64,000 nt of DNA from an uncultured Chloroflexia bacterium (GTDB lineage: Bacteria > Chloroflexota > Limnocylindria > Limnocylindrales > CSP1-4): the NCBI GenBank assembly GCA_963780425.1, contig CAWABZ010000008.1, forward strand, positions 192,931-256,930, written 5' to 3'. Of the stretch, positions 3,165 through 38,232 are shown in pieces. The stretch's first letter is position 1; every line of letters starts with the position of its first letter. The notes under the pieces were generated by a model, which ran no database searches, was not told the origin of the DNA, and saw nothing but the letters and a program-made list of their open reading frames with translations. A program made the translations under genes and the position numbers.

Positions 3165-5085
3165 CTACCGGCGGGCCGTGAACGTGCCGGGCACGGACCG
3201 TGAACGCGGGATGAATGGGCGCCCGACCGGCCTGAAGGGACGCCTGATAAGGCGGTGGGCGGCGGCGGCGATTGCCGGCGCGTCGATGCCGGCCTCAGCG
3301 AGTTGTTCTTCCGGCGTCGCCGATCCGGGCATGTTTGCGACCGCGAGCCGGCTGAGTCGCGGATGCAGGTCGGCGTCCGCCAGCGCGGCGAGGACCGCTT
3401 CCCCGAGGCCGCCCTCGGGCCGGTGATCCTCGATCGTTACGATCCGGCCTGTCTCACGCGCGGCCGCGGCGATCGTGGCCGTATCAATCGGTTTGATGGA
3501 GTAGAGGTCGATGACCCGGGCGGCGATCCCGTCCGCCTCGAGGCTCTGCGACGCGGTGATCGCCTCGTGGAGGGTGATGCCGGCGCTGATGAGCGTGACA
3601 ACGTCGGAGGGGCTCGAGCGGACGACCCGGCTGCCGCCGACCGAGAACCGCTCATCTGGGCCATAGATGACCGGAGTCTTGCCACGGGTGGTCCGCATGT
3701 AGACGACACCGGGCCGATCCGCCATCGCGACGACGAGCTGGGCGGTCTGATTCGCGTCCGACGGATAGAGGACGGTGCTTCCCCAGACTGTTCGGAAGCT
3801 GGCGATGTCCTCGAGACCCATCTGGCTGGGGCCATCCGGGCCGATGCTGACGCCGGCGTGCGAGCCGCTGAGGCGGATGTTGGCGCGGCTTACCGCGGCC
3901 ATCCGGATGAAATCGAAGGCTCGGCTCCAGAACGCCCCGTAGGTCGAGGCGAATGGCACCCAGCCGCGAACCTGGAGGCCGACCGCGGCGGAGGCCATCT
4001 GCTGTTCGGCGATGTACATCTCGAAGTAGCGCTCCGGCAGGGCGGCCTCGAACAGCTCGGTGTAGGTCGAGTTGTCGACGTCGCCGTCGAGGGCAACGAC
4101 GTCGCCACGGGCACGACCGACTGCGACAAGCGCCTCGGCGTACGCTCGCCGGGTGGCCTCCATCGAGCCGACCTCGTAGCGCGGCGAGCTCGAGCTTCCC
4201 ACCTTGGAACCGGTGCGGAACCGCCTCCCCTTCCGGTTTGTGCACGGCGACCGTGACCCGCGGATGGGCGGCCGCTCCGAGCTCGTCGAGTGCCTCGTCG
4301 AAGTCGGCGAGCGGCTTCCCGTGCATACCGTTCTGGTCGGCGACGGCGCTCACGCCACTGCCCTTGACGGTCCGGGCGACGATCGCCGTCGGGCGGCCGC
4401 TCGTGGCGATCGCCTCGGCATACGCGGCATCGATCGCACTGACGTCGTGACCGTCGACCTCGATCACGTGCCAGCCGAACGCCTGTCAGTCGACGCGAAT
4501 AGACGCCGAGGTCCCAGCTATGCATCGTCTCGCGCGTCTGGCCAAGGCGATTGACGTCGATGACCGCGGTCAGGTTGTCCAGACCGGCGAACGCTGCATG
4601 TTCGAACCCCTCCCACATCGAACCCTCGGCGAGCTCCCCGTCGCCGGTCAGCACCCAGACCCGATAGGGGAGCCGATCCAGTCGTTTGCCGGCGAGGGCG
4701 ATGCCGACGGCGATCGGCAGTCCTTGGCCGAGCGAGCCGGTGGCGACATCGACCCAAGGCAGGACGGGTGTCGGGTGACCCTCGAAGCGGCTACCGCGCT
4801 CTCGGTAGGACGGAGTGCCTCCTCGTCGATCGCACCGGCGGCGCGGTACATGGCGTACAGCAACGGCGACGCGTGACCCTTGCTGAAGACGAGGTGGTCG
4901 TTTCGTGCGTCCTCGGGCGCATCGAAGTCGTACTGGAGGTACTTTTCCAGCAGGACCGCCATCAGATCGGCGGCCGACATCGACGACGTCGGATGGCCGG
5001 ACTCGGCGGCTGAACTCGCCCGGATCGAGTCGATCCGTAGCTGCCGGCCGAGGTTGGTCCAGGTCTCTTGCGTGCGGTCGTTCAT
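3165..5085 (-). pseudogene. tkt: transketolase, reading frame broken about 3 times (or assembly indels)
   Basis: The N-terminus reads MNDRTQETW...SGHPTSSMSAADL...FSKGHASPLLYA (frame of 4648..5085). It continues as FEGHPTPVLPWVDVATGSLGQG...VLTGDGELAEGSMWEG (frame of 3890..4654), then AFGWHVIEVDGHDV...HGKPL (frame of 3652..4467). The C-terminal 345 aa (ORF 3165..4202) is one open frame: ATRRAYAEAL...EMYIAEQQMASAAVG...GPSQMGLEDIA. Shifts are at about 4800, 4487 and 4203. The total length of 1921 nt is not a multiple of 3. Whether the ancestral gene was fused or split at about 4200 is unresolved. Confidence 0.85.
3178..3216 (-). promoter_or_regulatory. four 11-bp-phased units GTGAAC / GGGCAC / GTGAAC / ATGAAT upstream of gap
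   Basis: Units start at 3178, 3189, 3200 and 3211. The site is 66-104 nt upstream of the gap ATG (3112) and lies inside the last codons of the transketolase ORF. Confidence 0.45.
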
Positions 5086-5156
5086 GAGTTCGTCCTTGTG
5101 CGCTGTCGCGGGTGCCTCGAGTGATCGCGGCCTGCCCGCTGAGGTAGGCTCATTGC

Positions 5157-5441
5157 ATGAGGTCCGTCGAGCTGGTCGTCAGCAATCCCAGCGGTCTTCA
5201 CGCTCGGCCCGCCACGCTGTTCACCGAAGCCGCGACGGGCTTCGCGTCGAAGATCACGGTCGAGAACCTCAGCCGCGGCAAGGCTCCGGTCGACGCGAAG
5301 TCGACCCTGTTGTTGTTGACGGCCGGTGTCTCGCGTGACCATCGGATCCGCCTTGCCGCGGACGGTCCGGACGAGGACGCGGCGATCGACGCCCTGGTCG
5401 GCCTGGTTTCCTCGGGGCTCGGAGAACCAGCGGCAAGCTGA
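5157..5441 (+). CDS. ptsH: HPr phosphocarrier protein
   Basis: 94 aa and intact, with the active-site motif NPSGLHARPA (His15). It is divergent from tkt. Confidence 0.9.
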   Translation: MRSVELVVSNPSGLHARPATLFTEAATGFASKITVENLSRGKAPVDAKSTLLLLTAGVSRDHRIRLAADGPDEDAAIDALVGLVSSGLGEPAAS

Positions 5442-5458
5442 TCCGGAGGCGGGGCCGA

Positions 5459-7207
5459 TCACGACAGCCCCCCTTCCGCGACGAGGGCTTCGAAGCGCGC
5501 CCGGACGGCCGCCGCGGATCGATCCTCAAGCGCCGTCATCGCCGCCGGCTCGAGGTCCGCAAGACGAACGCCGCGGATCGCCCGCCGGACGGCCGGCAGG
5601 CTCGAGCTGGCCATGCTGAGCGATCGGATCCCGAGGCCTGCGAGGGCAACCGCGGCAACTGGATCCCCCGCCATCTCGCCGCAAACCGACAGGTCGATGC
5701 CGGCACGCTCGGCGGCCTCGACGGATAGCTGGATCAGCCGCAGGACACTCGGGTGGAGTGAGTCTCGATAGCGCTCGAGGCTGGCGTTGCCTCGGTCGAC
5801 CGCGACCGTGTATTGGAGAAGGTCGTTCGTCCCGAGACTGGCAAAGGCGATCCGGTCGAAGTAGGAGTCACTAACGAGGACCGAGGACGGGATCTCGAGC
5901 ATCACACCCAGGGCGACGTCGCCCATCGCGATGTTCTCCGCCGCAAGTTCGTCCCGCGCGCGCTTGGCGAGGTTCACCAGCAGGTCCACGTCGCCGGCGT
6001 CAGCGACCATGGGCGCCATGACCTTGAGGGGGCCGGCGGCGGCGGCCCGGTAACAGGCGCGCAGCTGGGTCACGAACGGGCTCGGGTCGGCGAAGGCCAG
6101 GCGGAGCGCACGAACGCCGAGGAATGGGTTGGCCTCATCGGCGATCGGCAAGTACGGGATCGGTTTGTCTCCACCGACGTCGAGCAGCCGGATCGTGACC
6201 GGGTGGGGCGCGAACGCCCGCACGACGCCCTCGTAGGCCGCGCAATTGCTCGGCTTCCGATGGCGGGCTTGACCGTTCGAGGAACAGGAACTCGGTCCGG
6301 AAGAGGCCGACACCCTGGGCGCCAAGAGCCACTGCGCTCCTCGCTATCCTCGGGTGTGCCGATGTTGGCGAGAAGGACGATCTCGACACCGTCGAGCGTC
6401 ACGGCCGGCTGAATCGCTTCGAGCAGGTCCGCTGCGTGCTGTCGCCGCTCGTCATTGGCATCGGCGTCGAGTCGTACTCGGGCGTTCTCGTCTGGATCGA
6501 CGATGACCTCGCCCGTGTTGCCGTCGATCGCGAGCTCCGTGGCCCGCCCACTCTCCCCCTCCGTGCGAAGCGTCGCAATCAGGTCGCTCGCCCCGACGAT
6601 CGCAGGAATGCCGTATGCCCGAGCCAGGATCGCGGCGTGCGCGGTGGGCGAGGAGCCCTCGAGGGCGACACCGAGGAGTCGTTCGCGCGGCAGCGTCGCC
6701 GTCACCGATGGCGGAAGATCGTCGGCGACAACGACGGCCGGCCGGTCGAGCGCTTCGCTCGCGGTGTCTAGCGTTCCACTGAGCCTTCGGGCGATCCGCT
6801 GCCCGACATCGAGCACGTCGACTGCCCGCGCCGCCAGCAACTCGTCGTCGAGCGATCGCAGCTGTTCAGCGAAGGAGCCAGCCGCGGCCTGGATCGCGGC
6901 GACCGCATCCTCGCTGGACTGCATTGATCCGCCCGACGGCCAGATCGATGAGGGCTGGATCACGAGCGATGCTCGACTGCGCCAGGAAGATCGCTGCCTC
7001 GTCGGTGTGACCGTCGGCCGTGATGCGTTCGGCGATCGCCTCGAGCTCGTCGCCCGCGGCGTTCGAGGCTGCACTTAGGCGCTCGGCCTCGCTGGAGGCA
7101 GCCTCGGGGTCGATTCGCCCACCGGCGGGAGCCGGCGTCGGGTCGATCAAGACCCAGGCTCCGCGCACCACACCAGGTGCTGCCGCGACGCCCTGCAGAC
7201 GCTTCAT
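5459..7207 (-). pseudogene. ptsI: phosphoenolpyruvate-protein phosphotransferase (PTS enzyme I), about 3 frameshifts
   Basis: Pieces lie in three frames. MKRLQGVAAAPGVVRGAW... is in 6866..7228. ...GSSPTAHAAILARAYGIPAIVG... (phospho-His region) is in 6070..7074. GAQGVGLFRTEFLFL is in 6135..6389. ...IRLLDVGGDKP...SLGTNDLLQY...CGEMAGDP is in 5459..6325. Shifts are at about 6933, 6355 and 6245. Confidence 0.9.
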
Positions 7208-7490
7208 AGCCGAACGTCCGGATGACACACCCCGGACTCGAACAGGTCGCCCAGGACGGCCGTGATAGCGACTTCGTCGGGCCCGTCAGCAGTGATCCGG
7301 ATCCGATCGCCGTTCCGGATGCCAGAACTGATGAGTGCGAGCATGCCTCGGGCGTCGATCGATGCACCGTTGCCGTCCAGGTTCTCTAGTGACACGCTCG
7401 CGGCCAATCCTCGAGGCTCGCCTGGATCCGGCGGGCCGCCCGCGGGTGCAGGCCGTATCGGTCGCGGAACACGACGTCCCTTGAGGTCAC
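7204..7490 (-). pseudogene. second HPr-family phosphocarrier, one frameshift
   Basis: From GTG 7490 the frame reads MTSRDVVFRDRYGLHPRAARRIQASLED and then hits a stop. Shifting frame at about 7405 continues as LAASVSLENLDGNGASIDARGMLALISSGIRNGDRIRITADGPDEVAITAVLGDLFESG (ORF 7204..7503). The length of 287 nt is not a multiple of 3. It is repairable by restoring one T in GATT(T)GG. The stop overlaps the ptsI ATG (ATGA). Confidence 0.7.
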
Positions 7491-7583
7491 GCTGTCGCTC
7501 CAATCGGTATGTGGACGCGGTCTTGCGTCCGAATCGCGACCGCCCGGATCATCCCGAGCGGTCGCGAAATCCGCGGAGAGGGC

Positions 7584-9089
7584 CTAGGCGGCGCTCTGCG
7601 CTTCCTGCTTGACGCTTGACGACGAGGCCGAAGCGGGCTTCCCGCCCGGCACCCAACCCGTCAGGACGTAGTGCTTCTGGAACCAGCTCGCGATCACGAG
7701 CAGACCGGCGCAGAGGACCACGATGCCGAAGGCGGCGACGTTGCCTTCGATGCGGGCGATGTTGCCGACGATGAAGCCGAACCACTGGAAGTCAGCGTCA
7801 CCGAAGGTCGTGCCCTGGAACCCGATCGCACCCATCACGGGGATCAGGAAGGCCGCGAACAGGGTGATGATCAGCCCGTTGATGAAGCCACCCGCCACGG
7901 CGCCGCGCCGTCCGCCGGTCGCATTGCCGAACACGCCGGCGGTGCCTCCGGTGAAGAAGTGCGGGATCATGCCCGGCAGGATCAGCGGGACGACGAGCGC
8001 GGCGCCAAGCCCCGCCCACAGGACGCCGAACCCGACCATGCCGCCGGCGACGCTAGCAAGGAACCCGATCAGCACGGCGTTGGGTGCGAACGGGAAGGCG
8101 ATCGGGCAGTCGAGCGCGGGAACCGCTCCCGGGATGACGCGCTCGGCGATGCCGGCGAACGCCGGCACGATCTCACCGAGGATCGTTCGGACGCCCAGAA
8201 GGATGACCGCAACACCGCCACCGAACAGCAGCGCCTGGTTGAACATCGTGGAGAGGAAGCCGAGGAAGCCACCGGCGGCGCCCGTCGCTCCGACGAAGCC
8301 GGCGTCGGTGACCGCCTGGAATGCGGCGTCCTCCCCGACCCGCAGGGCGAAGACGGTCGCCAAACCGATGTAGATGAAGATCATGGCCACGGCCGTGCCG
8401 ACCATGGGGTCGCGCAGGAACCGAAGGCCCTGGGGGAACTCCATGTCCTCGGTGCTCTTGCTGCCACGGCCCACGATCTGTCCGGTCAGGCCGGCGGCGA
8501 TGTAGCCGAGGGACCCGAAGTGGCCCATGGCGACCGGCTGGTCGCCGGTCACCTTCTTCATCCACGGCATCGTGAATGCCGGCATGATCACCATCATCGT
8601 GGCCAGGCCGAAGGCCGCCACGAGGATCTGGACGATCGGCTCGACATGGGCGTTGTACAGGACGACGGTGAGCACCGTCGCCATGAACAGCATGTGATGT
8701 CCGGTCAGGAAGACGTATCGCAACGGTGTCAACCGGGCGATGACGAGTGACAGGATGACCCCGATGAACATCGAGAAGGCGATGTTCTGCGCGACGTCCG
8801 GGATGTCATTGACGATGGCGGTGATCGCCTCATTCGTGGGGACCACGCCTGCCACGCCGAATGAGCCGGTGATGAGCGCTCCGAGCGGGAGCAAGGCTCC
8901 GATCACGGCGCCAGCGCCGATACCAAGGATGATGAAGCCAAGGGTTGCCTTGAGCGCACCGCCGACGACATCGCCGCGGCTCTTGCGAGACGCGACCAGC
9001 GCGCTCAGGGTCATCAGTCCGACGAGATAGGCGGGAATCCCGAAGATGTCCTTCGCGATCCAGTCGACTGTGTATCCAAGTTGATCCAC
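7584..9089 (-). CDS. PTS ascorbate-family (UlaA/SgaT) EIIC permease
   Basis: 501 aa, intact and polytopic. The overall pattern (LRYVFLTGHHMLF, PGAVPALDCPIAFPFAPNAV, HFFTGGTAG) matches the UlaA/SgaT family from memory. Confidence 0.85.
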   Translation of the reverse strand: MDQLGYTVDWIAKDIFGIPAYLVGLMTLSALVASRKSRGDVVGGALKATLGFIILGIGAGAVIGALLPLGALITGSFGVAGVVPTNEAITAIVNDIPDVAQNIAFSMFIGVILSLVIARLTPLRYVFLTGHHMLFMATVLTVVLYNAHVEPIVQILVAAFGLATMMVIMPAFTMPWMKKVTGDQPVAMGHFGSLGYIAAGLTGQIVGRGSKSTEDMEFPQGLRFLRDPMVGTAVAMIFIYIGLATVFALRVGEDAAFQAVTDAGFVGATGAAGGFLGFLSTMFNQALLFGGGVAVILLGVRTILGEIVPAFAGIAERVIPGAVPALDCPIAFPFAPNAVLIGFLASVAGGMVGFGVLWAGLGAALVVPLILPGMIPHFFTGGTAGVFGNATGGRRGAVAGGFINGLIITLFAAFLIPVMGAIGFQGTTFGDADFQWFGFIVGNIARIEGNVAAFGIVVLCAGLLVIASWFQKHYVLTGWVPGGKPASASSSSVKQEAQSAA

Positions 9090-9155
9090 GACACACCTCT
9101 TTTGTTGCGGCCGCAGCAGTGCGGCCGGGAATGCGCCGGCGAGTCCGGCACGGAC

Positions 9156-9428
9156 TTATCCGATGGCCGCCTTGAGCTTCGTGACCATCTCGTTGAGGTC
9201 GATGAAGTTGGAGATCGTGATGACCCTGGGCTTCACTGGCCCGAGCTGTTCCGCGAGCTCCTCTGAGGTCAGGACCAGGTCGGCGGTGGCGGCAAGGGCA
9301 CGGGCCGAGCCCATGTCTGACACCTCGACATCGGCCTCGATGCCGAGTTGCTTCAGCGCCTTCTCGGCATTCATCCGGAGGATCAGGCTGGTGCCGAGGC
9401 CCATCCCGCAAACCGCCAGGATCTTCAC
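9156..9428 (-). CDS. PTS EIIB component (ascorbate/lactose-type)
   Basis: 90 aa, with MKILAVCGMGLGTS carrying the phospho-Cys. The GTG start overlaps the EIIA stop (GTGA). Confidence 0.85.
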   Translation of the reverse strand: MKILAVCGMGLGTSLILRMNAEKALKQLGIEADVEVSDMGSARALAATADLVLTSEELAEQLGPVKPRVITISNFIDLNEMVTKLKAAIG

Positions 9429-9980
9429 GTCGGTACCTCCGAGTCCTCGAGATCGGCGGTCGGCAACGGCGCGTCGTCTTCATGACGCCGTTCGAAGGCG
9501 CCAACCAGTCGCAGCACCTCGTCGGGACCGGTAGCTCTGAGCAGTCCGACGCGGCTCTCTTCGTCCGAGAGGAACTCGGCAAGCGTGGACAGCGCCGTGA
9601 CGTGGCCCTCCTCGTCGGGCGCCGCAAGGCCGACGACAAGACGAACCGGGTCGTTCGTGCGGTGGCCGAAATCGACCGGTCGGGCGCAGGGTCACCAGGC
9701 TGATCCCGGCGTGAAGAACGGCCGGCGACGGGCGCGAATGGGCGAGCGCGATGCCCGGGGCGATCACGATGTACGGCCCAAGCTGCTCGACGGTCGCGAT
9801 CATCTCGTCCGTGTAGGCCGGCGCAGTCGCACCGCTCGTCACGAGCGCGTCGCCTGCGAGGCGTACGGCCGCCCGCCAATCGGGTGCACTGGCTCCGATG
9901 CGGATCGCCTTGACGGTCAGCAGCTGCGACAGTCGAGGTCCGGGCGTGACGTCGACGGCGGCTCGGGTCACCCTAGGCAT
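9425..9980 (-). pseudogene. PTS EIIA (mannitol/fructose/ascorbate EIIA-2 type), one frameshift
   Basis: The N-terminal part is in ORF 9480..9980 (...GPYIVIAPGIALAHSRP, the His region). After about 9685 the correct frame reads PVDFGHRTNDPVRLVVGLAAPDEEGHVTALSTLAEFL...DSEVPT and then a stop. The length is 556 nt (a multiple of 3 plus 1). Confidence 0.8.
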
Positions 9981-10663
9981 GGGAGGCGCCCTGCTTCGGC
10001 CTTCGGTTCGGCCTGACCTGCCGCCTGCGCCGCTTCCCAGTCCCGGCGGAACTGGACGATGCCCTTGTCCGTGAGCGGGTGATGGATCATCTGCGTCAGG
10101 ACCTTGAGGGGTACCGTCGCGATATGGGCGCCGGCAAGCGCGGCCTCGGTCATGTGACGTGGGCTGCGAATCGAGGCGGCGAGCACCTCTGTGTGGAGGT
10201 CGTAGGTCTCGACGATCGCGACGAGCTCGCGGACGACCTCCATGCCGTCCTGGTTGATGTCATCGAGCCGACCGACGAAGGGCGACAGGAGCGAGGCGCC
10301 AGCCTTGGCCGCCAGGAGTCCCTGGTTGGCGCTGAAGATCAGCGTGCAGTTGGTCTTGATCCCCTCTTCGGCCAACCGGGCGATCGCCTCGAGCCCCTCC
10401 TCACTCATCGGGACCTTGACGAAGATGTTCGGTGCCAGCTTCGCGAAGTGGCGGCCCTCCCGGAGCATGCCCTCGACGTCGTCGGCCACGACTTCCGCGC
10501 TGACCGGCCCGGGCGTGATCTGACAGATCTCCCTGAGGACGTCGTCGTAGCTGCCGCCGACCTTGGCGAAGAGCGAGGGGTTGGTGGTGACCCCGTCCAG
10601 CACGCCCCAGCGGGCGGCGGTGCGGATCTCATCGATCCCGGCGGTATCCAGGAAGATCTTCAT
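9968..10663 (-). CDS. fsa: fructose-6-phosphate aldolase / type 3B transaldolase
   Basis: [13 protein letters not shown]...GVTTNPSL...KVPMSEEGL...TNCTLIFS...[12 protein letters not shown] 10663 within ORF 9968..10693 is the start. Intact. Confidence 0.9.
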
Positions 10664-10779
10664 CGTCGGTCCTTTGATGCCTGCTTCGGTCAACGTGCTT
10701 GAGAGTCGCGGGGTTGGGCCCGTCGACGGCTTCGTCGTCCAAAGTTGGGCGCAAGACTTGAAGGACCGGCCGAATTGAC

Positions 10780-10796
10780 ATGAACGCTCGGTGAAC
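10780..10796 (-). promoter_or_regulatory. direct repeat ATGAACgctcgGTGAAC upstream of the fsa/PTS operon
   Basis: Units start at 10780 and 10791 (11-bp phase), 117-133 nt upstream of ATG 10663. A further ATGAAT at 10808 is out of phase. Confidence 0.4.
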
Positions 10797-10907
10797 GTCT
10801 GGCGGCGATGAATACGAGTGGTGGCGAAGCCCGAGGGTCGCCTGGCCTTCGCTTGGCAAGGCGGTCGAGCCCCCGGCCCAGCCTCGTCGTGTCACGGACG
10901 GACCTGA

Positions 10908-11474
10908 TCAAGGCCCCGGCTTATCGACGGTCACCTGGGGCATGCCGACGTCATCCGGACGCGACATCCGGCGCTTCGTCGTCGGGCGACGATGCCCGGA
11001 GCCGCCGGAAACGCGATCGCCGCTTCGCGCCGGCCAGCTCATCGACGTTACGAGAGGGCAGGTCGATGACGACCTCCGGCATCCCGGCGGTCGACCCGGG
11101 CGAAAGCTGTGTAGCTCGCGTGGCGCGACTCGACGGAGGGTGCGCAGTCCAATGCGCGTGAGCGAGGTGGTTATACGCTCGGCGAGCAGCTCGTCGCCTT
11201 CGACCTGCAGCGCACGCGATCGGACCGGTCGCTGCGCGGGACCGCGGAGCACGGCGCCTGAGGTCACGTCGAACTGGCTGCCATGGCAAGCGCAGGTCAC
11301 GGTGGTTCCCTCGAGGTCGCCATTCGCCAGCGAGCAGCCCATGTGTGTGCAGGTGTCGTCGATCGCGTAGAGGTGTCCGCTTGAATTCGAGACGTTGACC
11401 TTCGTCCCGTCAACAACGAAGACACGCATCTCACCGTCTGCGACATCTGTCGCCGTTCCGATCCGCACCAACAT
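10908..11474 (-). CDS. Rieske [2Fe-2S] ferredoxin with an anomalous Arg-rich C-terminal extension
   Basis: The cluster ligands are CTHMGCS...CACHGSQF. The recognisable domain ends near ...LQVEGDELLAER (about 11170). The remaining ~85 codons are low-complexity, so the natural stop may have been lost. Confidence 0.7.
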   Translation of the reverse strand: MLVRIGTATDVADGEMRVFVVDGTKVNVSNSSGHLYAIDDTCTHMGCSLANGDLEGTTVTCACHGSQFDVTSGAVLRGPAQRPVRSRALQVEGDELLAERITTSLTRIGLRTLRRVAPRELHSFRPGRPPGCRRSSSTCPLVTSMSWPARSGDRVSGGSGHRRPTTKRRMSRPDDVGMPQVTVDKPGP

Positions 11475-11542
11475 GACTTGACCTCCGATCACTCTCCATG
11501 GAGATATCGGGACCCGTGGGCCCCTGGTTGAGCGGCGCGGCT

Positions 11543-12798: not shown

Positions 12799-12813
12799 TC
12801 CGACAGTCTCCGG

Positions 12814-13187
12814 CTACTCAGAGCTCGCTTCGACCAGGACGCTGCCCTGCATGTCCTTGGGATGCAGCGAGCAGTCGTAGCGGTACAGACCGGCTCGGTA
12901 AAGGCGTGGGTGACGCTCTCGCCCGGCTTCATCATCTGGACCTCGCCGCCGTCCAGCAGGCGCACTGAGTGGGTGAAGTTGTCGTTGTTCGTCCAGGTGA
13001 CCGTGGTGCCGACCGGGACGGTGATGTCCTCGGGCGCAAACTTGTACGACCTCGGCAGGTCGACCTGGTTCGTGGCCACTGGAGCGGCGGGTGCGGCGGC
13101 CTGACACGCGGCTGCGAGCAGCACCGCGAAGAGGATGGCGAGTGCCGGGCGGAGGGGATACCCGGCACTCGCGCGGAGGAGAAGCAT
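12814..13187 (-). pseudogene. lipoprotein-type cupredoxin (amicyanin/plastocyanin-like), one frameshift
   Basis: It has the signal/lipobox MLLLRAS...LLAAAC, the cupredoxin core TVTWTNNDNFTHSV, and copper ligands in the alternative frame (GLYRYDCSLHPKDMQG, ORF 12814..13107). It is repairable by GG to GGG at about 12894. Confidence 0.7.
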
Positions 13188-13192
13188 GGTGG

Positions 13193-13489
13193 TCAGCGCC
13201 CAGCCGCGTTGGCGGTCATGCGTCGCGCCGCCCAAACGAAGATGAGGATGAACGCCAAGAGGTCGAGGACTTCGCTGATCGTGTGAGCGAACAGGAAGAC
13301 CGTCCAGTCGAGGTGGTAGGTCATGTAGCTGAGTTCGGCCAGCGCGAACAGGCTGAAACCCCAGCCGAGCAGGCTTTGCCCGGCGCCGAACGAGCGCCAG
13401 GCGAAGTAGGCTCCGATGAGGAAGGCCGTCGCATGGATCGCCAGAAAGCCCAAGGCGGGAATCTGGTTGACGAAGTCACCGAATGGCAT
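13193..13489 (-). CDS. small hydrophobic membrane protein, hypothetical
   Basis: ORF 13193..13522, with three predicted hydrophobic spans. The start at MPFGDF is a guess. Confidence 0.4.
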   Translation of the reverse strand: MPFGDFVNQIPALGFLAIHATAFLIGAYFAWRSFGAGQSLLGWGFSLFALAELSYMTYHLDWTVFLFAHTISEVLDLLAFILIFVWAARRMTANAAGR

Positions 13490-29711: not shown

Positions 29712-29803
29712 CCGCGCACTTCTCCTGTGACGACACCTACGTCGAGTCGAACTGTACGGCCCGAGAGGACGTGAGCCTCGCGCAGCGGAAACCACCATGC
29801 CAA

Positions 29804-30214
29804 CTAGCGTGAAAGCGCACGGACAAGGTCGCTGTCCGAGATGACACCGAGTGCCGTTTCGGGGTCTTCGCCGACCACCACAAGCCGATCGACGTCGCAC
29901 TCGGTCATCATCCGCGCGGCTTCGGTCAGCGTGGCCGAACCGCGGATGGTGATGGCAGGTCGCGTCATCACGTCCCGAACCAAGACGGCGCCCCAAGCGG
30001 ACGACTGGACCGACGAAGCCGAGAGCCTGACGAGATCGGTCTGGCTGACCACTCCGACCAGGAGTCCCTCTGCGTCGACAACGGGCAGACCCCCGATGTC
30101 GTAGTCCGACAGAAGCTGGGCGACTCTGAATAGATCGACGTCTGGGGCGACGACGACTGGGTCACCCGCCGTCAGATCGACAACGAGGGCTTCGGACTCG
30201 TTCCTGTGCGCCAT
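29804..30214 (-). CDS. CBS-pair domain protein
   Basis: 136 aa and intact, with two CBS motifs (...IGGLPVVDAEGLLVGVVSQTDL... and ...VDRLVVVGEDPETALGVISDSDL...). Confidence 0.85.
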   Translation of the reverse strand: MAHRNESEALVVDLTAGDPVVVAPDVDLFRVAQLLSDYDIGGLPVVDAEGLLVGVVSQTDLVRLSASSVQSSAWGAVLVRDVMTRPAITIRGSATLTEAARMMTECDVDRLVVVGEDPETALGVISDSDLVRALSR

Positions 30215-30258
30215 GAGAGGACGCTAGAGCGTGCCCGTCGAGGTCACCGGAAACGCCC

Positions 30259-30275
30259 GTGAACAAGGCGTGAAC
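30259..30275 (-). promoter_or_regulatory. direct repeat GTGAACaaggcGTGAAC upstream of the CBS gene
   Basis: Units start at 30259 and 30270, 45-61 nt upstream of ATG 30214. Confidence 0.45.
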
Positions 30276-30374
30276 GGATGAGGGGCGGTCACCGACGTCG
30301 CCGACCGTGGCCCTGCTCGTCCGACGACTGATGTCGCTCGAAGTGGTCGCGCATCGTCGGAATCTCGTACGGCG

Positions 30375-30620
30375 CTACCGCCTGGAAAGGGCAAGGTCAC
30401 GTGACGACCGGGTCATTCGCGATGGCGTCAAGAGATCCGACACATCGTGGCAGTGTCGGACACGGGCGTTGCCCTGCACCGCGATCGAGCAGGTGCAATC
30501 TCGGCCGGCTACGCATCGGGCGCAACAGAACGGAAGCCCCGCCTGGAAGATGGGTGCGCCGGTGATGCCTACCTCGCAGGTCGCGCACGAGGGCGCCAGG
30601 TCGGCGTCAGGACGATGCAC
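30375..30620 (-). CDS. seven-cysteine mini-protein, paralog of 18567..18722, with a longer C-terminal tail
   Basis: ...LAPSCATCEVGITGAPIFQAGLPFCCARCVAGRDCTCS... is within ORF 30375..30773. The proposed start is GTG 30620, preceded by GAGGAG 6 nt upstream. The ~35-aa tail is absent from the paralog. Confidence 0.5.
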   Translation of the reverse strand: MHRPDADLAPSCATCEVGITGAPIFQAGLPFCCARCVAGRDCTCSIAVQGNARVRHCHDVSDLLTPSRMTRSSRDLALSRR

Positions 30621-30730
30621 AGCGGGCTCCTCGACATACAGCGATGGCACCGCGGACAAGCCAAAGTCCCTGCCCGCTAGTGCCACCGCCCCGAAGGTAG
30701 GTGACTGGACTGACAAGCCCGGGAATCGGC

Positions 30731-30747
30731 GTGAACGCCCGATGGAC
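30731..30747 (-). promoter_or_regulatory. direct repeat GTGAACgcccgATGGAC upstream of the second 7-Cys gene
   Basis: Units start at 30731 and 30742, 111-127 nt upstream of GTG 30620. Confidence 0.4.
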
Positions 30748-31338
30748 GACGCAGCGGGCCCGGAGTTCTTCATGCGCCGTTCACGTGACTTCCCCCGGAT
30801 CGACAGTGGCGCGATCTAGCCTCAATTCGACGCAGACGTCCTGCCTCCCCCGGTCGGGGCACATGCAGGACTGGAAATGGAGGCGATCAAGATGACGAGA
30901 CAGACAACGGCTCTCGCGGCGGGCTGGGACGCGGCAGAGTGGGCAAGCACGGAGCGGTCGGCACCCGGTCGCGACGTAAACGAAGTGGAGTCTCTGGCAG
31001 TGGGTGGGAACACCGCGGCCGGAAGGCTCAACTATCGATGGCCGCGGAGATAGTGCCCTATCGGGATTCTCGGGCCATAACCCCAGCGGTCAGCTCTCGT
31101 CTGCGGCACGAACCTTCGCCATTGCAGGCGGGCTCCTCGACGGACTCGGCGATGGCCGGCTCAGCGCGAGGCTCGATCCACAGGATGGTCTGTGCTGCGT
31201 GGCGATCTCGGACGAGCCCCCAGCCAGCGCTCAGCGATGAGGTTCCGGGGATCGCGCGTACCTGACCTGCCGGGGGACTTCGAGCCGATCGGGAGGACGG
31301 CCGGTCGGTAGTCGGCCCCGCGCGAGCGCCGGCGGGGT

Positions 31339-31355
31339 ATTCACGCCACGTTCAC
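31339..31355 (+). promoter_or_regulatory. direct repeat ATTCACgccacGTTCAC upstream of the first USP gene
   Basis: Units start at 31339 and 31350, 74-90 nt upstream of ATG 31429. A further GTTCAC lies at 31403. Confidence 0.45.
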
Positions 31356-31428
31356 TTTGTTTCGACTGTTTCGTCAATCCCACAGGTCATGTTGAACGCG
31401 TCGTTCACTAGGAACGGGAGCATGACCA

Positions 31429-31831
31429 ATGAAGAAAATCCTGGTCGCCTACGACGGCGACGAACCGGCGCATCGCGCGCTTGAACGAGGCGCTGAACTG
31501 GCGCAGGCGTTCGGGGCCGAGCTGGGTGTCGTGAGCGTCACGCCATGGCGCCGTGGCCGCTTCCCGACGGACGTCTGGGACGACGCCGAAGCCCACGCAA
31601 GGGCGCTCAAGTCAGCCGAGCGACTGGCTGAGCCAGCGCGGCCTATCAGCCACCTTGCTGTCACCCGCCGGCGACACCGGCAGGATGATCGAGAGGGTCG
31701 CTGAAGCCCATGACTTCGACACGATCGTCGTAGGGACCCGTGACCTGGGTCCGGTCGGTCGCTTCATGCAGCGAAGCGTGTCCGAGCACCTCGCCACAAA
31801 CGCAAAGGCGACGGTCGTCGTTGCCCGCTGA
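31429..31831 (+). pseudogene. universal stress protein (UspA family), one frameshift
   Basis: MKKILVAYDGDEPAHRAL is in ORF 31429..31704. The C-terminus DTIVVGTRDLGPVGRFMQRSVSEHLATNAKATVVVAR is in 31553..31831. The shift is at about 31620. Confidence 0.8.
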
Positions 31832-32095
31832 CGGTTGGACCCGAGTACTGGGGCTGACCGCGTTGCAGGTCGCCCCACCCACCACACCAGTTGACGGAGA
31901 TCGCCACATGTCTCGACGACCCCAGCGCTCTCGGCTGGTCGATCAGCTCATCTCGCCGGTCAGCGCGAAGCTGCGGCGATCGATCCCTCGTCTGCGCCGC
32001 AGCTTTCCGCCCCAGCAACCCCGATGGTCGTTGGCGCGTTTGGTTGGCCTTCGACGCGGACCCAGCGCATACCCAAGACCAGGAGACAAGAGCTG

Positions 32096-33020
32096 ATGCG
32101 AGTCATCCTTGCCTTTGACGGCTCGGCCGCCGCGACCGATGCCGTGGCTCTTGTAGAGGCGATGGCCTGGCCGAACGACTCGGTCCTGCGCGTCATCAGC
32201 GTGATCGAACCGACCTTGCCGACGGTGGGGCCGTTGTATCGCGGCGCCGCATCTGGCGCCGGAAATCGACGAAGCGATAACGGCCTACACGGACGACACC
32301 TTGCGAGGCGTCCTCGTACGCCTTCGGTCCTCCGGTCGATCGGTCGAGGGTGAGGTGCTGCGCGGCCGGGCCGCGAGCGCGATCGTCGACGATGCCCGCG
32401 ATTTCGGCGCCGACCTCCTGGTCGTCGGCTCGCGCGGTCACGGGACCATCGCATCGCTACTCCTCGGGTCCGTCTCCAGTGAAGTCGTCGATCACGCCTC
32501 ATGCCCGGTCCTCGTCGCTCGAACCACGGAGCTGGCCCGCGTCGTGTTTGCCACCGATGGATCTCCCTCGGCCCAGGCGGCCGAACTGATCCTGTCGGCG
32601 TGGCCCATATTCGCCGGGCTTCCGATCCGTGTCGTCAGCGTTGCCGACATCGTCCGTCCATGGACGATCGGGCATCGCCCCGACGATGTACGGACAGGTG
32701 CTCGACGCGTATGCGGCGGACTTCGCGAAGCGAAGGTGGAGCACGAGCGCATCGCGACCGACACCGCGACGCGACTGCGCGACGTCGGTCGCGCGGCCGA
32801 TGCCGAGGCTCGAGCCGGCGATGCCGCCGCCGAGATCATCGCCGTCGTCGAACAGCAGCGGGCCGACCTCGCCGTCCTGGGCTCGCGTGGCCACACCGGA
32901 GTGACCCGCCTCCTGCTTGGCAGTGTCGCCCGGAACGTCCTGTCGGGCAGTACCGCGTCGGTCCTCATCGTCCGCGACGGAACCGAGGAACCAGCTCAAG
33001 CCGGGGCTGCTCCGAGCTGA
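32096..33020 (+). pseudogene. tandem-domain universal stress protein, about 3 frameshifts
   Basis: MRVILAFDGS starts at ATG 32096 with an AGGAGA RBS. The two USP cores are LLVVGSRGHGTIASLLLGSVSSEVVDHASCPVLV and LAVLGSRGHTGVTRLLLGSVARNVLSGSTASVLIV. Shifts are at about 32250, plus a compensated pair at about 32670 and 32725. Confidence 0.8.
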
Positions 33021-33071
33021 CTGTCTACAGACAGGTTGGCCTTATCCAAAGACGCTTGAAGGAGACTCATC

Positions 33072-33434
33072 ATGAACCAGCGACGGATCCTGGTGGCCTA
33101 TGACGGAACCGAGGCGGCCTACTGGGCTCTCATGCATGCCGCTGACGCCGCCCTCGCAAATGACGCTGCGATCGGCGTGGTGACCGTCTCGCCCGCGCCC
33201 GCGGCGGCCGCCGCCGATGCTGAGCGGATCCTGCGCGAGCACGAGCTCGAGCCCGTCCTGCACACGCCGGTCGGAGACCCAGCGACGGAGATCGCGCGGG
33301 TCGCCGAGGAGCATGCCTATGACGCGATCTACGTCGGACGTCGTGAAGATGGCCCGTTGGCGCGGACGCTCGAACATCGTGTGTCGGAAGGCGTCGTCCA
33401 GGCGTCGTCCCGCACGACCGTGATCGCGCGATAG
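33072..33434 (+). CDS. universal stress protein (single domain)
   Basis: 120 aa and intact: RILVAYDGTEAA...AIYVGRREDGPLARTLEHRVSEGVVQASSRTTVIAR. Confidence 0.85.
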   Translation: MNQRRILVAYDGTEAAYWALMHAADAALANDAAIGVVTVSPAPAAAAADAERILREHELEPVLHTPVGDPATEIARVAEEHAYDAIYVGRREDGPLARTLEHRVSEGVVQASSRTTVIAR

Positions 33435-33501
33435 CAGCCGCCCAGATCGATCCGGTCGCCGGCCCGTCGAGGATCAGACCAATGCCAGCCTTCACGATCA
33501 C

Positions 33502-34903
33502 GTGTCCTCCAAGTCGTCGTCTTGGTTCTCTTCCTGGCTGGATGCGCGAGCAGCGGCGCCCCGACGTGGACGTTTGGGCCGACCATGGCGCCCTCGGGCG
33601 GGGCGACCGCGGCCGGGTCGTCGGCAGCCGAGCGCGCATCCGCATCCTTCGTCGGCGTCGGGTGCCCCGGCACCGAGCTCCGCAGAACCAGCTGGACATC
33701 GGGGCGTTCGACCTCGGGTTCGAGCCGTCGGCCATCACCGTGACGGCGGAGGGCACCTACGAGGTCGCCTTCAGCAACACGGGTGCCATCCCGCACGACA
33801 TCACCTTCGCGGACGGCACCACGATCCCCGCCGCGCCAGGTGCTACCAGCGTCGGCAGCGTGACGATCCCGGCAGGAGGCCTCACGTTCATCTGCTCGAT
33901 CCCGGGTCACGAACAGGCCGGGATGAAGGGATCGGTCACCGTCGCGGGGGCTGCAGCGACGCCGGACCCAGATAGCCACGGGGGTCCCGACACCGTCGAT
34001 CGACGTGGTCGCGGACCCGGACGCTCCCGAACCGGTCACCTACGACCCGATTGCGCCGCGGCTCCTGGCGGGCGACGTCCACGACATCGAGCTCGTGATG
34101 ACCGAGCAAGAGATGACCGTCGCGCCCGGGCTTCGTCCAGAAGGTCTGGACGTTCGGCGGGACCGTCCCCGGCCCGGTCATCCGGGTCAAGGTCGGCGAC
34201 ACCGTGCGGGTCCACCTCAAGAACCCGGCCACCAGCCAGATGTCCCACTCGATCGACTTCCATGCCAGCCAGGTCGCCTGGAACGACGAGATGCGGTCGA
34301 TCGCGCCCGGCGAGGAGCTGCTCTACGAGTGGACGGCCGAATACGCCGGCGTATGGATGTACCACTGCGGCACCGCCCCGACGCTGCATCACATCGCCAA
34401 CGGCATGTACGGCATGGTCATCGTCGAGCCGAGGGACGGCTGCCCAAGGTCGACAGGGAGTTCGCCCTCGTCCAGAGCGAGTGGTATCTCGGGTCCGCAG
34501 GGCGATATCACCAGCCTCGACAAGGCTGCTGCCGCGGCGCCCGCGCCCGACTTCGTCGTCTTCAACGGCGTCGCCAACCAATACATGGACGCGCCGCTCA
34601 AGGTTGAGACCGGCGAGCGCGTGCGCGATCTTCGTGCTCGATGCCGGGCCGAGCATCGACAGCTCGTTCCACATCGTCGGCACGATCTTCGACACCGTCA
34701 TCAAGGAGGGTATCGCACCTGGCGAAGGGCAACGCTGGATCTGGGGATCGCAGGCGGTCGATCTATCTCCAGCTCAGGGCGCGATCGTCGAGTTCACGAC
34801 CGCGGAGGATGGTCTGTACCCGCTGGTGACGCATGCCTTCAACTTCGTTGGGCGTGGGGCGCTCGGCATGCTGCAGGCTGGTGACGGCGATCCGACGAAC
34901 TGA
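33502..34903 (+). pseudogene. nirK: copper-containing nitrite reductase with a lipoprotein signal and an N-terminal cupredoxin extension, at least 7 frameshifts
   Basis: Reconstructed across three frames. The lipobox is LFLAGCASSG. The extra cupredoxin reads FEPSAITV...HDITF...FICSIPGHEQAGMKG. The NirK core reads VRVHLKNPATSQMSHSIDFHAS, WMYHCGTAPTLHHIANGMYGMVIVEP, FVVFNGV and IFVLDAGPSIDSSFHIVG. Shifts are at about 33520, 33640-33690 (two), 33990, 34130, 34438, 34495 and 34627. Confidence 0.85.
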
Positions 34904-35388
34904 TCGATGACCGCCAAGTCGTTGCCAGTCATCCAACCGGTAGGGATCTGCCGGATATTTATGGCATCTGCGCCCTCGAATCCCGTTGGACCGCGCGTTA
35001 GCCACCGGCCGGAATTTAGGAGCGAAAGTCCTGCACCGCATCGCGGGCTGCCTGTTAACCCGTTGCGGTAGCGTGCGGCTCCGCGCGGGCGGAGCGAACC
35101 TAGATCCAGGCGGTTAACGCGCGGAGGGGCCGGTCCCGATTGCTTGCGCGCTGGGCCGGCTCGATCCTCCTCCGCGATCTCTTTCGCCTGGCGCGCGGCC
35201 GCCTGCTTGGCCTCCCAGATGCGGAGGATCTCCATAGCCAGCGGGCGCAGCGGGAGTGGCGGCCGCGTTCCGACGCCGATGACGGTGATGCGACGGGGTC
35301 CGCGACGAGGCATCGTGCAGCAGCTCCTGGAACCTGGTACCCCGCATGCTCGCTTCGATCGGGTGAGACCAAGTGCGCGGCGTCGGCA

Positions 35389-35830
35389 GCGCTGGGCGAT
35401 CCGCCTGATGCTCGAGCATATAGCTCGATACCCATCAAGGTCGTACTGCGAGCCCACTGCGATCGCCAGGCCCGTGCGTTGGGGTCGGCCCGTCACCGGC
35501 TGACCGGCGACGACCTCATCTTCGCCGATGCCACCGGTGAGCCACTGTCGGGCCGCCACGTCACGACCCTGTCTTCAAGGCGCTCCTGCGGCGAGCCGGG
35601 CTGCCCGACATCCGCTTCCATGCCCTGCCCCACACCTTCGCGACGCTGCAACTGCGCGCCGGGACGAACCCGAAGATCGTGTCCGAGGTGCTGGGCCACA
35701 AGGAGATTGCGATCACCCTCGACCGCTACAGCCACGCCCTGCCGACGATGCAGACCGAGGCGATGGCCCGGCTCGACGCGGTCCTCGGCCGCTCGCCCCT
35801 CGACCGCGCCGAGTCGTCGTCGCCGCGGGA
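35389..35830 (+). mobile_element. degenerate tyrosine-recombinase (phage integrase) remnant
   Basis: Only the C-terminal catalytic region is recognisable: ...DLIFADATGEPLSGRHVT, a frameshift at about 35570, then FKALLRRAGLPDIRFHALPHTFATLQLRAGTNPKIVSEVLGHKEIAITLDRYSH. The HxxR arginine is replaced (HALPHT), the N-terminal domains are missing, and the open frame runs on into the tRNA gene without a stop. Confidence 0.7.
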
Positions 35831-35983
35831 ATCGGTGCCCGAGTTGTGGCTCGATCAGGACGCACCGGCCGATCACGAGGGGACGTCCGATCGGGATAAG
35901 GGTTCTGATAAGGGTTCAGCCGGCCCGCGGCGGACAAAGAAGAAGCCCGATCCGAGCGTGGATCGGGCCGAAACTGGCGATTT

Positions 35984-36060
35984 TGGTACCGCATACCGGA
36001 TTCGAACCGGTGATCTCCGCCTTGAGAGGGCGGTGTCCTGGGCCTCTAGACGAATGCGGC
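35984..36060 (-). tRNA. tRNA-Glu (anticodon CUC), CCA encoded
   Basis: The minus strand reads GCCGCATTCGTCTAGAGGCCCAGGACACCGCCCTCTCAAGGCGGAGATCACCGGTTCGAATCCGGTATGCGGTACCA. I folded the cloverleaf by hand: 7-bp acceptor stem (G1-U72 wobble), anticodon stem CCGCC/GGCGG, loop CTCTCAA, and T-loop TTCGAATC. Confidence 0.9.
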
Positions 36061-36137
36061 GCCGGCCGTCGGGCGGGGACCGCCACGACGGCCGACAGGA
36101 TACCAGAGGACCGGAGCCCGGTCGCCCGGGCTCCCGT

Positions 36138-38232
36138 TCACTGCGGGCTCAGCAGGTAGATGTGGTCGATGGCGACCGTCGGCCGCCCGCTCGTGCCCAG
36201 CGCCCGCACCCGGAGGGTATGTGGCCCTGCGGGCAGGTTGCGAGCGAACACCATGTCCCTCGCCCGGAACGTCGCGTGTCCGAGGTCGATGGTGGTCACT
36301 GCCCTGCCGTCGATCAGCACGACTGCCTTGCCGCGGGTCGGGCCGACGGGGCCGGCCCACGCGATGGATGTGCCATTGAAATCGATCGTGGCGATGTCGC
36401 CACGATGGGTCGTCGAGTGAGCCCGACGACCGAGATATCCGCTGTGCGAGGCGTATGCCCATGAACCCGACCAGCGGACGGCGCTGGACGAGTCCGACAC
36501 CGCGCTGGCACGGTACGTGGGGGAGTTGGCCCAGTCGCCGACCGTGCCCGCACGGTCGATCGCGCGGACCCGGAAGCGGAACGTCGTCCCGACGGGCACC
36601 GTGCGCCGCGAGACGCTCGAGGTCGCTGATGTGAGTCTGAGCGGAGCCCAGCTGCTGTCGCCGATGCGGACCTGGAGCTGGTAGCTCCGGATGCCCGCCT
36701 GCGTGTCGGTCAGCGCCCAGTCGACGATGACCGGCACACCCACGCTCGGCACCGCCGAGGTGTCCGAAAGCGTGACCTGCGGGCGACTCACCTCGGGCGG
36801 CCTCGCCGACTGGGGCCTCGACGGCGGCGGGGTCGGTGTCGGGGCGGCAGTCGGGGCCGGCGTCGGTGCCACCGTGGCAGCCGGCGTCGGCGTGGCAACG
36901 GGCGCCGAGGTTGCGGACTGGCGTCGGCGTCGGCTGTGCCGTGGGCACGGTCGCGCCGGTCGGCGTCGGGCCCGGCGTCGGAGCGGGGGTACTACCCGGC
37001 GTCGGAGCGGGAGTCGCCACGGGCGTCGGGACCGGTGTCGGCCCTGGCGTCGCGGTCGGCCTCGGCGTGGGTGTCGGCGTCACGGCCGGTGTCGGGGGTG
37101 GGGTCGCCGGCGCCGGCGCAGGACCGGACGTCGTGCCGGCCGGCCCGTACAGCCAGTCGGTGAAGCCGAAGTTCTTGCCTGTCCGTGCGGGGGCGGGGGC
37201 GCGGAACGACGTCCCGTACCGCTTGTCGATCAGCCACGGCTGCCATTCGTCGTCGCCCGTCGCCGGCCAGCCGGCGCGGTTGTAGAGGAACGTCGTAGCC
37301 CGCAGCAGGGCGCGATTCGACCAGGACCAGGCGTCGTAGCCCTGCACACGCAGGAGCTCGGCCTGCAGGACCGCTCCCTGCATCCCCTCCCACGGATAGC
37401 CCGTGGAGGCGGGCGGCCACTGCAGCGCGCCGCCACGACGCAGGTCGTCCGGCAGGACGCCATCGAGGTTGATGCCCGCACGCGAGCACGGCGGGTTGAT
37501 CCCGACAGGTCGCAGGGGGTCGCATTGCCAGCTGAGCTCGCCGTAGGTGAACCCGGCATAGGCTGCCCGATCGCCGAGGTAGCCCCGGAACACCTGTGCC
37601 GTCCGAGCGATCTGGGCGCTGTCGCCAAGGTACCCGGCGACCGCGGCGCGTGCGGCACCGGCATGGGTGCCCCAGTTGTTCGGACGGTCCTCGTGCGTGC
37701 TGACGAGCGTCCGCCCGTCGAGGGTCTTGGTCAGCAGCGACCGCAGCCACGGACGGAAGGTGTTCTGGTCGAACGATGGATCGGCCGACGGAAGGTCGAC
37801 GAGGTCCGCCGCGATGACGTAGCCCGGAAGGTTGCGCCCGAGGGCGAGGGTCCGTCCGCCGGTCTCGGTACCGACGGCTCTCTTCAGGGCGGAGATGACG
37901 TCGGCCCGGTAGCCGGCACCGCCGATCCGGGCATAGACCAGGCCCTTGGCGAGCGTGGTGACGTCCGCGGACTCGTCCTGATTCGAGATGTCAGGCGTGC
38001 CGATCGACGAGTCGGCGCGGGCCTTGAGGGCGGTCCAGGCGGTACCGCTGGTCGGTCGCGAGAGAAGCTCGGATCGCGACATGAGGATGGTGTCGGTGGC
38101 CGCCGAGGTCGGACTCATGCGGGCGACGATCAGGATCGTACCGAAGGCCAGCAGGAAGGCCATGACGTGCACGATCAACGCTGGGATGACTCGACGAGAC
38201 GCCCACTGGGCGCCGCTCGAGAGCGACGACAT
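36138..38232 (-). pseudogene. secreted/anchored polysaccharide-lyase-like (alginate-lyase-type) protein with a Pro/Thr linker and C-terminal Fn3-like plus beta-sandwich domains; one frameshift in the linker
   Basis: The N-terminal TM/signal and ~390-aa helical domain (...HEDRPNNWGTHAGAARAA...) are in ORF 36046..38232. The PT-rich linker spans about 36880-37130. The C-terminal 244 aa (...IRSYQLQVRIGDSSW...FRFRVRAIDRAG...RVRALGTSGRPTVAIDHIYLLSPQ) is in ORF 36138..36872. The lyase family call is tentative. Confidence 0.55.

Follow-up and report, generated by a model that had tools for sequence, protein, structure and literature searches.

Known sources of frame-breaking lesions

Indel artefacts are described for assemblies made from long reads (Nanopore or PacBio CLR), in which single-base indels split conserved genes (Sereika et al. 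2022, PMC9262707; proovframe, 10.1101/2021.08.23.457338), and Nanopore bins with less than about 40x coverage retain frame-breaking indels (PMC9262707). A second known source is reductive decay, as in Mycobacterium leprae and in leaf-nodule Burkholderia (Danneels et al. 2018, PMC6054270), in which many multiply-hit genes stand amid intact ones. Real decay is deletion-biased, with broad indel sizes and neutral substitutions; in real bacterial pseudogenes there are 0.76 insertions for each deletion, and the mean length is about 19 nt for deletions and about 4.5 nt for insertions (PMC6054270).

The 64,000-nucleotide stretch of DNA analysed here (the window) has features of both. As in the long-read artefacts, its lesions are single-base indels in conserved genes, they are found genome-wide in an assembly that is highly contiguous yet lowered in marker-gene completeness (19 contigs, 85.7% complete), their density would depend on coverage, and different genes are affected in further few-contig genomes of the genus. 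Unlike the classical Nanopore error, which is a homopolymer deletion, about three quarters of them are insertions, mostly outside homopolymers, and this counts against reading them as artefacts. With reductive decay they share the multiply-hit genes amid intact ones, whereas they are 1 nt long and insertion-biased, come without extra substitutions and affect gyrA and conserved core genes. On the whole, comparison of the sequences points with high confidence to consensus errors with blockwise quality, very probably from a long-read-only or poorly polished metagenome assembly, and not to mutations.

Broken and untouched genes of the window

Lesions were located by tblastn with intact ORFs of relatives, by nucleotide alignments against up to six relatives, and by the Pfam profile coordinates of adjacent frame pieces, Pfam scanning being done on stop-free pieces of frames. 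A sequence-only reading of the window had counted about 45 frame-breaking lesions, and these approaches together confirm them where it saw them: about 44 lie between 4186 and 35570, and one more at 36911, within the genes it had named, including the aconitase gene.

The transketolase gene (tkt, 3245..5155, minus strand) carries three single-base lesions, inserted at 4186 and 4484 and missing at 4812, as shown by alignment with the relative G048, by the frame changes and by the Pfam profiles Transket_pyr and Transketolase_C. In the gene of PTS enzyme I (ptsI, 5342..7429, minus) three single-base insertions (6243, 6336 and 6921) appear in the nucleotide alignment, and the 717-aa ORF of G033, a many-contig (short-read-like) genome, matches across frames -1/-2/-3/-1. 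The second HPr gene (HPr-2, 7207..7548, minus) has one base missing at 7411 (tblastn and alignment), its frame matching the PTS-HPr profile at positions 29-80 only, and the PTS EIIA gene of the EIIA_2 type (9443..9995, minus) has one inserted base at 9687, with profile positions 2-80 and 80-141 in two frames and the G033 alignment in agreement. The ferredoxin reductase gene (11546..12813, minus) shows two frame breaks (about 12223 and 12420), with Pyr_redox_2 positions 2-140 and 142-190 divided between frames and a third piece matching Reductase_C, together with an in-frame TAG at 11948-11950, seen in the translation across it. One base is missing at 12898 in the cupredoxin gene (12817..13307, minus; tblastn, alignments, Pfam Cupredoxin_1), and one is inserted at 15951 in the DUF488 gene (15710..16097, plus; profile positions 2-87 and 86-119 in two frames, and alignments).

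The block 16413..20234 holds the response regulator, histidine kinase and GreA-like genes (all minus) and gdh (plus), and a five-genome alignment shows 11 inserted and two missing single bases there that are unique to the studied genome. The response regulator has insertions at 16500, 16916 and 17043; the histidine kinase has insertions at 17472, 17740, 17936 and 18351 and a deletion at 17791; the GreA-like gene, identified by its GreA_GreB Pfam match, has an insertion at 18570 (and a deletion at 18728); and gdh, which five relatives match across frames 1/2/3 by tblastn, has insertions at 18872, 19323 and 19674.

Further to the right, the UDG-family gene (26079..26850, plus) has one inserted base at 26557, as indicated by the alignment and by UDG profile positions 1-64 and 70-138 in two frames. 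The second aconitase copy (26876..29699, minus) might be taken as intact, a view that we rejected: its 898-aa ORF conceals an inserted base at 29505, which severs ~75 residues from the start of the protein, and at 28515-28617 a garbled cluster of lesions that compensate one another and restore the frame, as an alignment also shows. When four intact aconitases are compared with it by tblastn, frame -2 matches their N-terminus and frame -3 their body, with a short match in frame -1 at 28522-28599. Among the three USP genes (31429..33431, plus), the first is broken at about 31660 (Usp profile positions 1-79 and 88-141 in two frames, the other USP genes being full matches; alignments), the tandem-domain one has an insertion at 32670 and a deletion at 32721, a count that rises if an error-prone relative is trusted, and the third is intact. 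The copper nitrite reductase gene with an N-terminal cupredoxin domain (nirK, 33482..34903, plus; Pfam Copper-bind, Cu-oxidase_3 and Cu-oxidase_2) carries seven single-base lesions in 0.75 kb, namely five insertions (33986, 34125, 34494, 34626 and 34715) and two deletions (34440 and 34739), all unique to the studied genome in a seven-genome alignment. Finally, the core gene that had been read as lyase-like (36141..38421, minus) has one inserted base at 36911-36914, an extra base with respect to the closest relative, G132.

The sequence-only reading was also right about the interleaved genes, for gap, ptsH, EIIC, EIIB, fsa, the globin gene, crp, DUF1622, yceI, pyk, trpS, CBS and USP-3 are without lesions. 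Six of them (globin, crp, DUF1622, yceI, pyk and trpS) lie in a lesion-free block of 6.9 kb (19675..26556), with single-frame matches to relatives and full-length Pfam matches.

Spectrum, spread and origin of the lesions

All lesions that could be placed at base level are 1 nt long and unique to the studied genome in alignments with one to six relatives, as expected for artefacts; a few sites that align as 2-3 nt, for example 13200-13206, are left uncounted. In the genomic island that fills the left part of the window there are about 26 insertions and 10 deletions, and genome-wide the ratio of insertions to deletions is 579:222, so that neither the deletion bias nor the broad indel sizes of decay are seen. 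Homopolymer slippage was rejected as a general cause, because the inserted base seldom copies its neighbour (12 of 49 placed +1 insertions); the homopolymer repairs that had been cited in favour of poor consensus are therefore not the general pattern.

The earlier suggestion that the lesions are confined to about 20 genes stands only in part. The block 19675-26556 is significantly clean in a largest-gap test (P = 0.002), but confinement by gene is barely beyond chance: with 39 lesions in 33 genes, 16 genes are untouched where 12.6 are expected at a uniform rate (P = 0.07), and the dispersion among genes gives P = 0.19. That a single rate fits poorly is borne out on the genome scale, the density being about 1.3/kb in the island, 0.3/kb in the adjacent core and 1.1/kb in a core hot spot on contig C5.

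The lesions are limited neither to this region nor to dispensable genes. Core genes of the window (47742..63820) have the same lesions, inserted at 48323, 51165, 52364, 58209 and 63798 and missing at 51723, and ORFs that are whole in G132 are split in the studied genome. Five of these sites (48323, 51165, 51723, 52364 and 58209) are unique 1-nt indels in a seven-genome alignment, 36911 is an indel relative to G132, and 63798 is placed by the comparison with G132 only. Beyond 48.3 kb, where the stretch previously read as lesion-free (38.5-48.3 kb) ends, the core part of the window is not clean. The only copy of gyrA is split into two frames by a +1 insertion at C12:449432 that four relatives lack. 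At C5:200-216 kb, 15 unique +1 insertions and one deletion fall within 14 kb of syntenic conserved core, and the idea that hot spots are always accessory DNA was accordingly rejected. No lesion is found in rpoB, rpoC, dnaE and secA (~14 kb), which is somewhat below the expectation at 0.3/kb.

A reference-free scan of the genome by a simple GC3 hidden Markov model, a lower bound that was run with a control, gives 817 frameshift-like junctions, 72% of them +1, at 0.17-0.55/kb on each of the 19 contigs. In the control, loci of many-contig (short-read-like) relatives have 0.077/kb and few-contig loci 0.24/kb; the few-contig, low-completeness relatives G037 and G023 reach 0.5-0.6/kb, and a third, G048 (71% complete), 0.1/kb. 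The model overlooks many island lesions due to atypical codon use, and with this lower sensitivity none of the 25 densest 30-kb segments of the genome falls in the island. From about 540 calls above background and a sensitivity of about 40% against alignment-placed lesions in the window, we extrapolate roughly to a genome total of some 1,000 lesions or more, or about 0.3-0.4/kb. The lesions are thus genome-wide and reach essential single-copy genes, as artefacts would (gyrA, all 19 contigs, C5), whereas decay should strike only dispensable genes and not gyrA or conserved syntenic core genes.

Relatives lack the lesions of the studied genome. Breaks are reciprocal: over a shared core of 67 kb, 12 ORFs that are whole in G132 are split in the studied genome, and 10 that are whole in the latter are split in G132 (a megablast comparison with G132 gave 236 raw one-base gaps, a number inflated by cheap gaps and netted to 78 non-3n clusters). 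Elsewhere in the genus, few-contig genomes have their breaks in other genes, and pyk, whole in the studied genome, is split in G037 only. At 18873, 26561 and 36914 the extra base is missing from short-read contigs of soil metagenomes, and the one at 36911-36914 is missing in all four runs, in contigs of a soil strain about 98% identical; these soil runs contain other strains, which match the core at ~98% identity but the island merely in thin fragments of 90-95%. Assemblies of the same type are therefore broken elsewhere and short-read ones are not, which is the behaviour of an artefact.

Relaxed selection, with its excess of lineage-specific and non-synonymous substitutions, is not seen. In the 16.4-20.2 kb block, which has 13 unique indels in the studied genome, the histidine kinase and gdh genes have 51 lineage-specific substitutions against 74-160 in the others, the fewest of five genomes. 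The dN/dS comparison proposed for detecting decay gives no elevation either, with 0.09-0.27 for broken genes overlapping 0.05-0.27 for intact ones.

Because the lesions are genome-wide including gyrA, have one non-biological spectrum, are absent from relatives and short-read contigs and bring no extra substitutions, we regard them as consensus errors in intact genes. Of the two origins left open by the sequence-only reading, poor consensus of a long-read or low-coverage assembly is thereby favoured over ongoing gene decay. Where few reads or reads of mixed strains back the consensus, spurious single bases, mostly insertions, would stay in, and each would break one reading frame. Read support would shift in blocks of several kb and error density with it, giving about 0.3/kb in typical core, 1-1.3/kb in the island and at least one core hot spot, and clean blocks between. 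Low or uneven read depth is the presumed local cause of the unevenness, and perhaps not all of the population carries the island.

Three other readings have a small probability. It is unlikely, though the best of the three, that most lesions are assembly errors and a minority in the island real, the candidates being the integrase truncation, the TAG of the ferredoxin reductase and, in some of the multiply-hit genes, perhaps a single lesion. Single-base errors cannot account for the loss of the N-terminal two thirds of the integrase, and a stop made by substitution is another kind of change than an indel, so both could be genuine; however, no single island indel can be told from the genome-wide artefact class, and a substitution error can equally make a TAG. 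Still less likely is a real, ongoing pseudogenisation of the horizontally acquired island, with its cargo under relaxed selection and a few useful genes kept. An accessory location with a degenerate integrase, several cargo genes duplicated elsewhere in the genome and one in-frame TAG would suit it, as would two observations that count against artefacts, a mean density about four times as high as in the adjacent core and the significantly clean 6.9-kb block. Yet the same spectrum at similar density occurs in conserved core DNA and gyrA; the lesions placed at base level are all 1 nt, with insertions 3:1 and not of slippage type, the opposite of known pseudogene spectra; lineage-specific substitutions are not in surplus and dN/dS is at most 0.27; IS insertions and large deletions are absent from the broken genes; and confinement by gene is not beyond chance. 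Least credible of all is an insertion-biased +1 mutational process (e.g. error-prone repair synthesis) on recently silenced accessory DNA of this soil bacterium, in which case the genome-wide lookalikes would have to be real population variants too.

The main value of the lesions is a warning. Annotation of this genome, or of the many few-contig genomes of low completeness in the genus, would yield false pseudogenes by the hundred and the wrong conclusion that the PTS, nirK, gdh, tkt or the second aconitase has been lost, whereas these genes should be read through the breaks.

The tRNA-Glu island and its genes

What remains as real biology is modest, a 50-kb island at tRNA-Glu with genes for sugar uptake, central carbon metabolism, stress and denitrification. 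This low-GC genomic island of 50,048 bp occupies C8:178826-228873 (window -14104 to 35943), and window 1..35943 is its right-hand 36 kb, with the PTS operon, tkt, gap, fsa, gdh, pyk, trpS, the second aconitase, the USP genes and nirK. Next to it lies a tRNA-Glu(CTC) gene (35984..36060, minus; ARAGORN), with its 3' end towards the island and 40 nt from the junction, in a stretch that many members of the genus conserve at 82-94%.

Like tRNA-associated islands with a tyrosine integrase, this is a 50-kb block of lower GC at a tRNA 3' end (0.65-0.68 versus 0.70-0.72 in the flanks), with an integrase-family remnant at the same end. It is missing from the closest relative, G132, which runs directly from C8:228874 to C8:178825, and is patchy in the genus, pieces occurring in only a few species at 79-88% identity. 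Unlike such islands, it has neither an intact integrase nor flanking att repeats. The tyrosine-recombinase remnant (35541..35890, plus) has just the C-terminal portion of its domain left, matching positions 113-169 of the 172 in the Phage_integrase profile. The two junctions share no repeat of more than 12 nt, and no direct repeat of the tRNA 3' end is present at the far one. The island is real and tRNA-Glu-associated, and its cargo genes are to be treated as intact; since the far junction has no direct repeat and the integrase is a fragment, it is probably old and immobile. Elsewhere in the genome, another copy of acn is located on C17 and a partial match to nirK on C13.

Frame-breaking indels in the window

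Aligned to the window, the intact ORFs of relatives switch from one reading frame to the next within the genes that the sequence-only reading had named as damaged, and nucleotide alignments place the lesions at base level; for the split genes with no counterpart in a relative (ferredoxin reductase, DUF488, USP, UDG, EIIA and HPr-2), Pfam profile coordinates confirm the breaks. On the whole, about 44 lesions are counted from 4186 to 35570, with one more at 36911. The damage noticed from the sequence is thus present, the genes listed as untouched are indeed so, and the in-frame TAG of ferredoxin reductase is real in the sequence. In aconitase, the open 898-aa ORF suggests an intact gene, but tblastn with four intact aconitases confirms compensating shifts: +1 at 29505 puts the first ~75 residues in another frame, and ~35 residues are garbled around 28515-28617.

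The same reading held that lesions are confined to certain genes and that a single uniform rate fits poorly. Based on 39 lesions in 33 genes (28.7 kb), confinement exceeds chance only in part: 16 genes are untouched against a mean of 12.6 under a uniform rate (P = 0.07), the dispersion test gives P = 0.19, and the untouched genes are mostly just short. What stands is the lesion-free block of 6.9 kb (19675-26556; P = 0.002), the sole significant feature of the lesion distribution.

Lesions in the rest of the genome

Lesions occur beyond this region. In the core part of the window, one-base indels found in no other of seven aligned genomes lie at 48323, 51165, 51723, 52364 and 58209, and comparison with the closest relative, G132, places further core lesions at 36911 and 63798. 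Among the ORFs in 67 kb of core common to both genomes, 12 are whole in G132 but split in the window genome, and for 10 the reverse is true. The single-copy gyrA is broken into two frames by +1 at C12:449432 (on another contig of the assembly), an insertion that four relatives do not have; rpoB, rpoC, dnaE and secA are intact.

A reference-free frame-switch scan of the source assembly (3.6 Mb, 19 contigs, completeness rated 85.7%) detects 817 frameshift-like junctions in all, spread over every contig at 0.17-0.55 per kb. By the same scan, loci of many-contig relatives have 0.077 junctions per kb, and the few-contig, low-completeness G037 and G023 have 0.5-0.6 per kb, with 0.1 per kb in a third, G048. 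Junction density is over-dispersed across the genome, and the island at the left of the window falls outside the 25 densest 30-kb windows, the scan being less sensitive there. The densest interval of the scan, C5:200-230 kb, lies in syntenic core DNA and, with 15 unique insertions of +1 plus a single deletion over 14 kb, equals the island in lesion density. Many few-contig genomes of the genus are rated at 55-80% complete, with 0.5-0.6 junctions per kb in two sampled at 68-72%; their low completeness probably reflects broken marker genes rather than absent DNA.

Short-read contigs from four soil runs, which hold the core of a ~98%-identical strain and thin fragments of related islands, do not have the extra bases at 18873 and 26561, and that at 36914 is absent in all four runs. 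They agree with the comparison to relatives, though coming from other strains they give no same-population test.

Origin of the lesions

Between the two explanations offered from the sequence, poor consensus quality is favoured over gene decay by the genome-wide lesions including gyrA, by the indel spectrum, and by the substitutions. We are thus highly confident that the lesions are real letters of the record and not a real biological feature. The best explanation is residual consensus error in a bin assembled from a long-read metagenome; such bins under ~40x coverage retain frame-breaking indels (PMC9262707). With long reads starting and stopping kilobases apart, low-depth support, and hence the error rate, would shift in multi-kb blocks, which fits the alternating clean and damaged stretches, and depth would be lower still over an accessory island that only a fraction of the population carries. 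However, the lesions are insertion-biased outside homopolymers, unlike textbook Nanopore error, and the platform is therefore left unnamed. The truncation of the integrase may be genuine, and perhaps also the TAG of ferredoxin reductase.

Gene decay under relaxed selection finds no signature in the substitutions. The dN/dS against relatives is 0.09-0.27 in broken genes and 0.05-0.27 in intact ones. In the block 16.4-20.2 kb, which has 13 indels unique to this genome, histidine kinase and gdh show 51 lineage-specific substitutions, the fewest of five genomes (74-160 in the others); in nirK, the dozens of neutral substitutions expected beside seven neutral indels in 0.75 kb are not seen. The spectrum is not biological either. 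All lesions placed at base level are of one base, with insertions to deletions of ~26:10 in the island and 579 +1 against 222 -1 shifts in the genome-wide scan, whereas in curated bacterial pseudogenes the ratio of insertions to deletions is 0.76, with mean lengths of ~19 nt for deletions and ~4.5 nt for insertions (PMC6054270). Slippage is excluded as the origin of the insertions, since the inserted base copies its neighbour in only 12 of 49.

The island and the adjacent core

G+C content is 0.65-0.68 in the first 36 kb of the window against 0.70-0.72 in the remainder. G132, with a core identity of ~93%, joins C8:228874 (window 35944; C8 being the contig of the window) straight to C8:178825, showing that the low-GC block is a 50,048-bp insertion. 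This 50-kb island (window 1-35943, extending left to C8:178826) lies at tRNA-Glu(CTC) (35984-36060), whose 3' end faces it, with a tyrosine integrase fragment just within its edge; a search for an att repeat at the island ends found none. The island is an ordinary tRNA-associated genomic island, probably immobile. Its cargo includes a complete-looking PTS (EI, two HPr, EIIA, EIIB and EIIC) with tkt, gap and fsa, as well as a second aconitase and a second nirK that has an N-terminal cupredoxin domain fused to it. PTS operons are reportedly unusual in Chloroflexota, the phylum to which this genome is assigned. The genus is large and made up of soil genomes, yet only a few of its species share pieces of the island, with identities of 79-88%. 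A segment at 20240-25068 (globin, crp, DUF1622, yceI and pyk), which overlaps most of the lesion-free block, does not occur in the related islands that G034 and G037 have; there, gdh directly adjoins trpS. Low-depth soil contigs likewise connect 20254 to 25141. The island is thus mosaic.

At the left junction, ~1 kb (C8:177771-178825; L080:1771-2825) containing a MOSC-domain ORF is 99% identical to G132 within core of 92-94%, and G132 bears its own 23-kb insert at the same spot; the two genomes may share a hot spot for recombination or insertion here. On the other side, single-base length differences at 38405 and 38512 fall within runs of G or C close to the end of a gene, at the edge of or outside the coding sequence. 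At 38405 the short-read contigs have no indel and appear to side with the window genome against G132, and at 38512 all four soil runs have an extra C. For the core stretch 39419-46193 (6.8 kb), which includes tRNA-Arg(CCT) at 42104-42179, G132 has nothing equivalent at that place. Finally, intergenic 53791-53900 differs from G132 by several multi-base length differences with GCCCTT-like units, and resembles a short tandem repeat of variable length more than an error.
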